Source: a virus. From it: 32,241 bases of DNA. A program made the translations under genes and the position numbers. Below the pieces are notes generated by a model that worked only from the letters and a program-made list of their open reading frames with translations, did no database searches and had not been told where the DNA came from. Position 1 is the stretch's first letter, and each line of letters opens with the position of its first letter. Below are positions 7,151 through 7,329 of the stretch, piece by piece. The stretch spans positions 1 through 32,241 of IMG/VR virus record IMGVR_UViG_3300014039_000059. The stretch is one strand, 5' to 3'.

Positions 7151-7187
7151 AAACGAGACTTTTATTTAATTAATAAAAGTCTCGTTT
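7151..7187 (-). terminator. hairpin plus T-run between two tRNA genes (terminator or processing hairpin)
   Basis: AAACGAGACTTTTATTAATTAAATAAAAGTCTCGTTT then TTTCTTTTTTAT on minus strand. Confidence 0.45.
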
Positions 7188-7329
7188 GGTGCGGTTGGAG
7201 GGATTCGAACCCTCGGCCAATAGCTTAATGGAGATGAAAATGAGATTTGAACTCATATCTTTTCATAAGAAATGTATTTCATTATACTATTTCATCAAGG
7301 CTACTGCTCTACCCCTGAGCTACAACCGC
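7187..7329 (-). tRNA. tRNA-Lys(UUU)-like gene interrupted in the anticodon loop by a 68-nt mini-tRNA-like insert (7229..7296)
   Basis: exon1 GCGGTTG TA GCTC AGGGGT AGAGC A GTAGC CTT | insert | TTAA GCTAT TGGCC GAGGG TTCGAAT CCCTC CAACCGC A CCA; removing the insert gives loop CUUUUAA; backbone resembles E. coli tRNA-Lys. Confidence 0.6.
7229..7296 (-). ncRNA. mini tRNA-like element nested in tRNA-Lys anticodon loop
   Basis: GATGAAA TA GTAT AATGAA ATAC A TTTCT TATGAAA AGATA TGAG TTCAAAT CTCA TTTTCATC T CCA: 7-bp acceptor, 4-bp D stem, perfect T arm, encoded CCA, but no U33 and no variable loop. Confidence 0.45.

Follow-up and report, generated by a model that had tools for sequence, protein, structure and literature searches.

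A tRNA-shaped intervening sequence in the anticodon loop of a phage tRNA-Lys(UUU) gene and its putatively mobile family

How can a tRNA gene hold, exactly in its anticodon loop, a second and smaller sequence that is itself shaped like a tRNA, and what becomes of this sequence in the transcript? The question is raised by the tRNA-Lys(UUU) gene of the IMG/VR virus record IMGVR_UViG_3300014039_000059, whose 32,241 nucleotides (nt), here called the window, belong to a large phage in which many tRNA genes share one strand. An earlier reading of the letters alone, the original prediction, took the 68-nt insert of this gene for either a tRNA-shaped intron removed by tRNA-processing enzymes or a nested Y-RNA-like gene that disrupts the tRNA. 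Comparative evidence (alleles without the insert, boundaries defined by the element, homing endonucleases in related copies, and the interrupted gene being the sole isoacceptor copy) favours the intron and not the Y-RNA-like gene. We think it probable that the insert is a member, devoid of an open reading frame (ORF), of a family of mobile introns whose excision sites are set by tRNA mimicry.

The interrupted tRNA-Lys gene and its insert

The gene and its insert are organized as follows.

7187 to 7329, minus strand: interrupted tRNA-Lys(UUU) gene, 143 nt including the encoded CCA (RF00005, empty alleles, cloverleaf fold)
7297 to 7329, minus strand: 5' exon, 33 nt (acceptor 5' strand, D-arm, anticodon-stem 5' strand, C32 U33 U34)
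7187 to 7228, minus strand: 3' exon, 42 nt (U35 U36 A37 A38, anticodon-stem 3' strand, variable loop, T-arm, acceptor 3' strand, A73, CCA)
7229 to 7296, minus strand: class-1 tRNA-shaped element, 68 nt (88.6 bits with the covariance model R1; helices fully paired; absent from empty alleles)
7290 to 7296, minus strand: acceptor 5' strand of the element, GATGAAA
7288 to 7289, minus strand: linker TA
7274 to 7287, minus strand: D-arm of the element
7261 to 7272, minus strand: central hairpin, stem of 4 base pairs (bp) and 4-nt loop
7257 to 7260, minus strand: linker AGAT
7240 to 7256, minus strand: T-arm of the element
7233 to 7239, minus strand: acceptor 3' strand of the element
7229 to 7232, minus strand: tail TCCA

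Read on the minus strand, the sequence matches exactly what the original prediction had quoted, a tRNA-Lys(UUU) with a 68-nt insert in its anticodon loop. The 5' exon, from 7329 to 7297, reads GCGGTTG TA GCTC AGGGGT AGAGC A GTAGC CTT, and the 3' exon, from 7228 to 7187, reads TTAA GCTAT TGGCC GAGGG TTCGAAT CCCTC CAACCGC A CCA, with the insert located between U34 and U35 (junction CTT/TTAA). An Rfam scan, which had been proposed as a check, matched the whole gene as a tRNA (RF00005) at 59.9 bits and E 9e-11, above the gathering threshold of 29 bits, with a 71-nt insertion in the anticodon loop; an uninterrupted Lys allele scored 80.2 bits on the same model. The minimum-free-energy structure of the Lys sequence spliced in silico is a cloverleaf, and its best match in the E. 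coli chromosome is tRNA-Lys (83.6% over nt 8-61, from D-arm to T-loop), in agreement with the likeness already claimed. The spliced junction would read GTAGCCTT/TTAAGCTAT, and the D-loop AGGGGT and the T-loop TTCGAAT are markers of the filled allele. ARAGORN did not call the gene at default settings. In intron mode, it called a Thr(UGU) with an intron after position 35, which is ruled out since the empty alleles read CTTTTAA.

We collected 66 related phage loci via the DNA located 3' of the Lys gene. The identical interrupted gene was found in nine contigs, in which the sole variable base is the one before CCA (T, G or A) and the 5' exon has no mismatch. In five close relatives (L008, L010, L011, L016 and L017), the same tRNA-Lys is present without the insert and its loop is CTTTTAA, that is, the CUUUUAA that precise removal had been predicted to give. 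The tRNA-Lys of L013 holds another insert of 483 nt, so that the alleles are nine filled, five empty and one differently filled. The uninterrupted alleles prove that the gene is tRNA-Lys(UUU) and that the insert is between U34 and U35. Between filled and empty alleles, the exons show three fixed differences, as expected if flanking exon sequence was co-converted during homing. As read from these alleles, the Lys insert is a presence/absence polymorphism at an exact site. An assembly artefact is ruled out, the identical element being present in nine IMG/VR contigs and in metagenome contigs.

The helices of the element are complete: acceptor GATGAAA/TTTCATC 7/7, D stem GTAT/ATAC 4/4 and T stem ATGAG/CTCAT 5/5. 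Its T-loop is TTCAAAT, its tail is TCCA, and it has no ORF of its own. The acceptor, D stem, T-loop and CCA are as predicted, but the T stem has 5 bp and not 4, and in place of the non-canonical anticodon loop that had been described, there is a hairpin (4-bp stem, 4-nt loop) and then a linker of 4 nt. The inner element therefore misses the canonical 5-bp anticodon stem and 7-nt loop. It was not called by ARAGORN in default or intron mode, and Rfam gave no separate tRNA match at E<=10, overlapping matches of the same clan being suppressed under the outer tRNA. The features of RNase P and RNase Z substrates, namely the acceptor/T stack, the D/T elbow and the 3' NCCA, are present. Taken alone, the insert has an unremarkable stability (z = -1.3), and for this reason we relied on covariation to support its fold. 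The best non-tRNA Rfam match at the insert, the small RNA SpF41 (RF02435; 25.8 bits, E 0.022), is below the gathering threshold of 52 bits and was rejected as a likeness of shape only (UAGUAUA D region, short hairpin and T-arm).

A family of tRNA-shaped inserts

The covariance model R1 was built from seven inserts found in related loci, which with their relatives form class 1. True members scored at least 57 bits in a first search and down to 48.6 bits in an enlarged set. Ordinary tRNAs scored 20-47 bits on R1, indicating that the shape of the element is truly tRNA-like. For the family search, we ran a spacing-restricted pattern over GTDB genomes and JGI metagenomes, followed by a fixed-geometry filter. 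Among the matches listed, from phage and metagenome contigs, there are at least 29 distinct elements located in tRNA genes, in at least 11 tRNA species: Lys(UUU), Ile(UAU), Gly(UCC), Gln(UUG), Arg(UCU), Asn(GUU), Ile(GAU), Leu(UAA), Pro(UGG), Thr(UGU) and one with a UUA anticodon. The junction is at 34/35 in 11 of these 29 elements, at 35/36 in seven and at 36/37 in 11. Every one of them starts with base 1 of its 7-bp acceptor stem and ends with a 4-nt tail, which is an exact NCCA in 23/29 and whose last base is A in 27/29 and G in 2/29 (the ACCG tails). Base -1 is U in 22/29 and base +1 is G in 18/29, both being the usual context of RNase P.

ORF-less members are 57-112 nt long. Excision at the ends of the element yields a 7-nt loop in every in-tRNA case, at three loop positions, and of 72 architecture-positive contexts, 28 were left with a 7-nt loop and a tRNA that could be called when the element was deleted from +1 through the 4-nt tail. 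In a boundary-grid control, ARAGORN accepted any register giving a 7-nt loop, so that this approach fixes the length deleted and not the register. From sequence comparison, uninterrupted homologues prove the register in Lys, Arg and Gly only; elsewhere it is presumed. Empty-site alleles with identical or near-identical exons were found for Lys, for the Lys of the L019 clade, for Arg and for Gly; the L019 clade has one filled and five empty alleles, four of the latter with no exon mismatch and one with a single mismatch.

Nine elements were delimited by hand, with the acceptor and T helices assigned by distance from the ends only. In this set, 144/144 helix cells are paired and 14/16 positions are compensatory, which is reached by none of 2000 partner shuffles; the D stem, picked by maximising pairs over loop lengths, is the weaker part. 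The acceptor (7/7) and the T stem (5/5) are complete in all nine. In a model-based alignment of 24 distinct sequences, which is fitted to the model and hence favours structure, 97.6% of the cells are paired, compared to 66% when shuffled and 46-54% when slid, with 146 double-change cells against 43 expected and a covariation score of 0.79 against 0.20 (0/500 shuffles). Conserved in the family are U8, A14, a D-loop G, the T-loop TTCRANT, the acceptor/T stack and the tail. The central arm is variable, with 10 nt in one member, the 4-bp/4-nt hairpin in Lys, 60-70 nt in L019 and L020, and more than 800 nt at most. These alignments indicate that the acceptor, D, T and central helices are maintained through compensatory change. 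Identical in at least nine independent contigs and covarying across 24 distinct family members, the Lys fold is, by this measure, far beyond chance. Together, the conserved parts make up the tRNA half recognized by RNase P, RNase Z and the CCA enzyme.

Two copies in this phage carry an endonuclease gene, one of them within the window.

28187 to 29169, minus strand: tRNA-Arg(UCU) split at 35/36 by a 905-nt class-1 member (insert 28229-29133)
28253 to 29035, minus strand: GIY-YIG homing-endonuclease ORF in the central arm of the Arg element (PF01541, E 1.2e-7)

The Arg insert has the 5' end GTTAAAT-TA-GTTT-AATGAA and the 3' end ATAAG-TTCGAGT-CTTAT-ATTTAAC-T-CCA, and an uninterrupted relative of the tRNA, in L065, has the loop CTTCTAA. 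The GIY-YIG ORF contains seven in-frame TAG codons (translated with TAG as Q), and its stop codon is within the T-stem. The same arrangement was found in the independent assemblies L241 and L242 (an assembly artefact is ruled out, the arrangement being present in two further ENA assemblies). In L241, which is the same phage, tRNA-Asn(GUU) is split at 35/36, ~5 kilobases (kb) past the window edge, by a 734-nt copy with an HNH ORF (PF01844 at 21.4 bits, exactly on the cutoff). The two endonucleases have a common C-terminal module. In phage tRNA arrays, relatives of this module occur as free-standing genes, and a stand-alone mini-tRNA often comes next. None of the relatives of the GIY-YIG ORF or of the C-terminal module is nested, ORF-bearing nested copies being found only in this phage (Arg and Asn). 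The other interrupted genes were called Asn, Arg(tcg), His and Thr by ARAGORN, which we corrected to Thr(UGU), Arg(UCU), Asn(GUU) and Gly(UCC). Being present or absent at one and the same site, and having an endonuclease ORF in some members, are features of mobile introns, and class 1 is very probably a family of mobile intervening sequences.

Class-1 elements were also seen in tRNA-Lys of L100 (7189-7257; bin of a Methanobrevibacter metagenome-assembled genome, MAG) and in tRNA-Ile(UAU) of L111 (Clostridium MAG), two short contigs that are probably mis-binned phage DNA. If the Methanobrevibacter assignment of L100 were real, the family would reach archaeal viruses. Chryseobacterium chromosomes (L098, L116, L117, L118 and L120) contain a conserved 73-nt tRNA-like element with a non-standard anticodon loop, GAAGCAA-TA-GTTT-AAATGGAA-AAAT...GCAAG-TTCAAAT-CTTGC-TTGTTTC-CCTT, for which joining the flanks gave no ARAGORN tRNA call. 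Finally, in L038 (2567-2692), a tRNA with the apparent loop CTT/TAAT (UUA) holds a 49-nt insert that is a plain extended hairpin, not tRNA-shaped, and that may be another insert type.

Probable splicing and its alternatives

In 37 cases out of 37, no intact tRNA with the same anticodon was found in the locus retrieved. The array of this phage, with ~30 tRNA genes, has one gene per amino acid, and Lys, Arg(UCU), Asn and Thr are present only as interrupted genes. All outer tRNAs retain a cloverleaf, with no decayed outer tRNA among 29 contexts. The exact restoration of the loop, the cloverleaves and the lack of a backup copy suggest that the class-1 element is probably spliced from the pre-tRNA.

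Since the boundaries track the element and not the position in the host loop, and since the conserved part is the surface recognized by RNase P and RNase Z, the simplest model is a removal by RNase P, a 3' endonuclease and a ligase, a route that we propose tentatively. The tRNA-like top half of the element (acceptor/T stack, D/T elbow and NCCA) would recruit the cellular machinery for tRNA end processing. RNase P would cut between U34 and G+1, and the second cut, located between A76 of the element and U35, would be made by a tRNA 3'-end endonuclease (RNase Z-type or another CCA-tolerant enzyme), the outer anticodon stem keeping both tRNA halves together. The 3'-OH/5'-P nick would then be closed by an ATP-dependent RNA ligase, of the type that repairs tRNA in phages, restoring CUUUUAA, and a 68-nt mini-tRNA with a CCA end would be released. 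At the DNA level, the element would spread by homing, with endonucleases provided in cis (Arg and Asn copies) or in trans (ORF-less Lys copy). The mini-tRNA released at each splicing would possibly have its own function, and the family could have originated by the reverse reaction, an RNA ligase inserting a free mini-tRNA into a nicked anticodon loop. In M. smegmatis YrlA, a tRNA-like module that is internal and has an acceptor stem of 7 bp is cut by RNase P RNA (M1 RNA) and receives CCA (PMC4201824). Encoded in the window are a cREC_REC domain and a weak match to RlaP (Pfam; positions given below), and the RlaP and cRec families are reported to accompany phage RNA ligases (PMC7824862).

Several points weigh against splicing by such a route, besides the unremarkable stability of the insert and the model-fitted alignment mentioned above. 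The weak point of the model is the 3' cut: RNase Z of B. subtilis is inhibited by CCA, so that a CCA-tolerant enzyme is needed. The RNase Z of T. maritima cuts after CCA. Precursors that encode CCA are usually finished by exonucleases, to which the 3' exon would be lost. The reachable DNA, only part of each genome, yielded no RNA ligase, RNase Z or other candidate enzyme: scanning everything retrieved for motifs gave two spurious matches only, no ligase was met from RlaP leftward to the contig ends, and more tRNAs and a YcaO, with no ligase, were met rightward from the AAA gene. Six of the 29 tails are not NCCA (ACAA three times, ACCG, ACTA and TTCA), two further Asn copies need a 1-nt tail, as in a CCA-less tRNA gene, and the outer tRNAs of L004 and L007 have mismatches (C3.A70 or A27.G43). 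The stand-alone mini-tRNAs described below indicate that the RNA of the element may have its own function. Moreover, the element is mobile, and the integrity of the exons and the stem covariation across the insert may predate its insertion and hence do not demonstrate later selection. This is why we do not consider splicing as more than reasonably probable.

It is unlikely, in our view, that the insertion is purely selfish and never spliced. In that case, an endonuclease-associated cassette or an ORF-less derivative would have inactivated the tRNA gene, the host would supply tRNA-Lys, and the mini-tRNA shape would be, for instance, an RNase P/Z processing or stabilising signal for the endonuclease mRNA in polycistronic transcripts of the tRNA array, not a means of exon ligation. 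Phage tRNAs are often dispensable, the exons of filled and empty alleles are (near-)identical, perhaps for want of time to decay, and both the missing ligase and the usually free-standing relatives of the endonucleases, often located before a stand-alone mini-tRNA, fit this scenario. However, an unspliced insert needs neither precision nor a preference for positions 34-37, whereas the exact 7-nt loop is restored at three positions. Nor does it account for the lack of a same-anticodon backup in all 37 cases, for the absence of decay among the 29 outer tRNA contexts, or for a set of otherwise one gene per amino acid in which Lys, Arg, Asn and Thr are interrupted.

Distinctly less likely is a nested functional RNA gene. 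Here, the 68-nt CCA-ended mini-tRNA would be the real product, liberated by RNase P and a 3' nuclease from the transcript of a tRNA gene that is only a convenient, highly transcribed host; the roles proposed are a decoy for host nucleases that target tRNAs, a Y-RNA-like partner of DUF2828/MVP, and an acceptor for non-ribosomal aminoacyl transfer. The fold is conserved and not the sequence, conserved stand-alone versions exist in the window and in many arrays, and TROVE proteins work with tRNA-like partners (PMC7824862, PMC4201824), all of which would suit such an RNA. The genes downstream of the Lys gene and the stand-alone version in the window are the following.

5491 to 7026, minus strand: DUF2828/DUF7788 protein (Pfam), downstream neighbour of the Lys gene
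2880 to 5375, minus strand: MVP-like protein with MVP shoulder and Vault_3 (Pfam)
1624 to 1935, minus strand: cREC_REC (Pfam)
353 to 1171, minus strand: weak RlaP match (Pfam)
26152 to 26224, minus strand: free-standing tRNA-like gene, 'anticodon' arm with 5-bp stem and 4-nt loop (ARAGORN 'tRNA-???'; Rfam tRNA 49.4 bits; R1 42.5 bits)

Other stand-alone tRNA-like genes were seen in L241 (4576-4646), in L125, L135, L149, L231 and others (after tRNA-Ala), and in L250-L252 (~1775-1850). They have a truncated or odd 'anticodon' arm (4- or 6-nt loop) and are ordinary members of the arrays, some directly after homing-endonuclease genes. The original prediction had named a decayed tandem tRNA duplicate occurring outside tRNAs as counter-evidence; this is partly borne out, as similar mini-tRNAs do stand alone in arrays, but they are conserved and not decayed.

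A module located at 353-7026 on the minus strand, directly downstream of the tRNA array, encodes the DUF2828/DUF7788 protein, the MVP homologue, small ORFs, cREC_REC, T4_Y16D and RlaP, and is a candidate RNA-repair or ribonucleoprotein module. The Lys gene had been placed directly downstream of this MVP/TROVE-like module; being on the minus strand, it is in fact transcriptionally upstream of tRNA-Cys and of DUF2828/MVP. Close relatives with the same DUF2828-MVP module (91-93% protein identity) are without the Lys insert, which is therefore not an obligatory partner. The tRNA array is also next to DUF2828 in Bacillus phage Tsamsa, indicating that this arrangement is ancestral. By their DUF2828 protein, the closest cultured relatives are ~165-kb Bacillus siphophages such as Tsamsa (40-43% identity), and among deposited phages none was matched by a megablast of 9 kb. 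Compared by sequence, the DUF2828 protein matches none of the solved structures, Ro60 among them, and is not demonstrably TROVE. The ends of the Lys element form an acceptor stem and not a Ro-binding helix, and no Y-RNA family of Rfam matched at the insert. In view of the insert-less sister phages, the ancestral synteny and the lack of a Ro60 match, we reject a tie of the insert to the MVP/DUF2828 module, and the Y-RNA-like gene originally considered is not supported. A nested RNA would also leave unexplained the homing endonucleases of the larger members and the boundaries that exactly restore a tRNA. It is, all the same, compatible with an intron and not exclusive of it.

An intron of the archaeal or eukaryal type, cut by a bulge-helix-bulge (BHB) splicing endonuclease and joined by RtcB, is very improbable. 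The anticodon-loop location, the family member of L100 on a Methanobrevibacter MAG contig and the cREC_REC encoded nearby (cyclic-phosphate processing) would be in accordance with it, but at the fixed junctions U34/G+1 and A68/U35, the required central helix (A29-C32 with U63-C66) is impossible to form, and 3-nt bulges separated by 4 bp are lacking. A perfect 7-bp helix has the 5' site at its base and the 3' site 4 nt beyond it. In addition, the position of the junction varies when the ends of the element are constant, the closest cultured relatives infect Bacillus, and no splicing endonuclease was seen. A self-splicing or self-cleaving ribozyme (miniature group I, hammerhead or twister-type), to which the U ending the 5' exon and the apparent classical group I introns at 34/35 in tRNA-Leu(UAA) of related phages might point, is more improbable still: 68 nt are far under any group I core, which is well over 100 nt (P3-P8), the element ends in A and not in the G that the second splicing step of group I introns requires (PMC3984707), the UGAUGA at its 5' end is not conserved in relatives, and Rfam gave no RF00028 match and no hammerhead, twister, pistol, hatchet, hepatitis delta virus-like or hairpin ribozyme at E<=10 in 7180-7340, which for group I is a weak negative since Rfam also missed the apparent Leu(UAA) introns. 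The class-1 element is neither a self-splicing ribozyme nor an archaeal-type intron.

Other inserts, significance and known systems

Besides class 1, the tRNA arrays contain inserts of other types, one of which is in the window.

11216 to 11749, minus strand: tRNA-Thr(UGU) split at 36/37 by a class-2 insert of 460 nt (11254-11713)
11267 to 11695, minus strand: PDDEXK_5 endonuclease ORF in the Thr class-2 insert

Class-2 inserts were also observed in L008 (2874-3420), L013 (4767-5321) and L016 (1803-2328), always at 36/37. They are nearly all PDDEXK_5 (I-Ssp6803I-family) ORF, with ~25-60 nt of non-coding sequence, no terminal G and no tRNA shape. Their last three nt complement the anticodon (ACA for UGU, AAA for UUU and GGU for UCC), and in this way the anticodon stem is prolonged without a break, to a helix of 17 bp in the window, and the two junctions are offset by 3 bp. 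Such an offset is the DNA-cleavage geometry of I-Ssp6803I. In tRNA-Leu(UAA), inserts of 337-926 nt at U34/A35 were seen in L012, L014, L015, L016, L019, L023, L031, L045, L054 and L065. By eye, they are like classical group I introns (the exon ends in U and the intron in G, with the 3' end ...AGACUACA...GAGUAGUAAG/AAAA), and no Rfam group I intron was found in them at the gathering threshold. The RAGATH-33 RNA (RF03102, 123-127 bits) immediately follows the intron-bearing tRNA-Leu in L013 (3562-3690), L014 (1441-1569), L015 (2083-2211) and L016 (1051-1179); no copy was found in the window itself. A free-standing GIY-YIG + NUMOD1 gene with in-frame TAGs is located at ~10495-11135 on the minus strand, directly after the interrupted tRNA-Thr in the downstream direction, and in L241 (9492-9884, about 31.4-31.8 kb of the window), a PDDEXK_5 ORF adjoins tRNA-Ser(GCU). 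The density of homing endonucleases in this array is very high.

An amber-suppressor tRNA (anticodon CUA) is encoded at 25505-25576 on the minus strand. A subset of genes (ORFs 8288-9172, 23165-24676 and 13031-14293, and the ORF 28253-29071 of the intron-borne GIY-YIG) has 2-10 in-frame TAGs and the other genes have none, which, with the suppressor tRNA, is consistent with partial TAG recoding.

A literature search, in which subscription journals were mostly uncovered, gave no description of nested or tRNA-like tRNA introns or of phage tRNA introns of this kind, and a 2026 survey of bacterial tRNA introns is confined to groups I and II. These tRNA-shaped, endonuclease-associated intervening sequences appear to form a new family. 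Quite possibly, although we would not call it probable, it represents a third kind of tRNA intron, next to self-splicing group I/II and BHB introns: mobile introns with neither a catalyst nor a dedicated endonuclease site, disguised as tRNA, cut by end-processing enzymes and rejoined by a phage repair ligase. If class-1 elements are spliced, they would show a new way for a selfish element to spare its host gene, by a mimicry that borrows the tRNA maturation enzymes and needs neither a ribozyme nor a dedicated splicing endonuclease. Protein-dependent tRNA splicing would be extended to bacteriophages, phage RNA ligase/repair modules would gain a housekeeping substrate, and a plausible evolutionary bridge would exist from tRNA-like processing signals to introns. 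Default tRNA finders miss or mis-assign these genes (Lys was called Thr, and Asn was called His), and 4 of about 30 tRNA genes are affected in this phage. The tRNA repertoires of large gut and rumen phages, and the inferences on codon usage and recoding made from them, are therefore systematically incomplete.

Among known systems, group I introns (cyanobacterial tRNA-Leu(UAA) and tRNA-fMet/I-Ssp6803I; Patescibacteria tRNA-Asn/Asp at 35/36) are alike in their anticodon-loop site at 34-37. Like class 1, they are polymorphic in presence, have an optional GIY-YIG or HNH ORF in a peripheral arm and ORF-less derivatives, and presumably keep the host gene functional by removal at the RNA level. Unlike them, class 1 has no ribozyme core (57-112 nt without the ORF) and no terminal G, the top half of the tRNA cloverleaf being conserved instead, and is located in phage tRNA genes. 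At the time of a 2014 review, all known phage introns were in protein-coding genes, despite many phage tRNA genes (PMC3984707). Internal tRNA mimics with a 7-bp acceptor, a T-arm and an elbow are also known as processing signals that RNase P and RNase Z cut: the mascRNA of MALAT1/MEN-beta, plant mitochondrial t-elements and the YrlA module of M. smegmatis. They likewise set cleavage sites in a larger transcript and yield a small CCA-ended RNA. However, these mimics mark RNA ends with no religation, whereas class 1 is within an anticodon loop, so that its flanks must be rejoined, and it is mobile and can carry endonuclease genes.

Archaeal and eukaryal introns (BHB, EndA/Sen with RtcB/Trl1) are also protein-dependent and located in the anticodon loop, with exons held by the tRNA body. 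In contrast, class 1 has no BHB, would be recognized by its own tRNA shape, and is predicted to leave 3'-OH/5'-P ends instead of cyclic phosphate/5'-OH. With YrlA and Ro60/TROVE, the Lys element shares being a small tRNA-mimicking RNA near a putative RNA-binding module, here in a phage; it differs by the lack of a Ro-binding stem or Rfam match, by ends that form an acceptor stem, and by its absence from sister phages with the same module. Finally, the proposed last step is the same reaction as that of T4 Pnkp and Rnl1, which seal the anticodon-loop nick of tRNA-Lys cut by PrrC, and the RlaP/cRec/RNA-ligase modules of large phages have a counterpart here in the RlaP-like and cRec genes ~5-7 kb downstream of the Lys gene. 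No ligase gene was located in this phage, and, in contrast to T4-type repair, which responds to damage by a host nuclease, the break here would be programmed by the intron.

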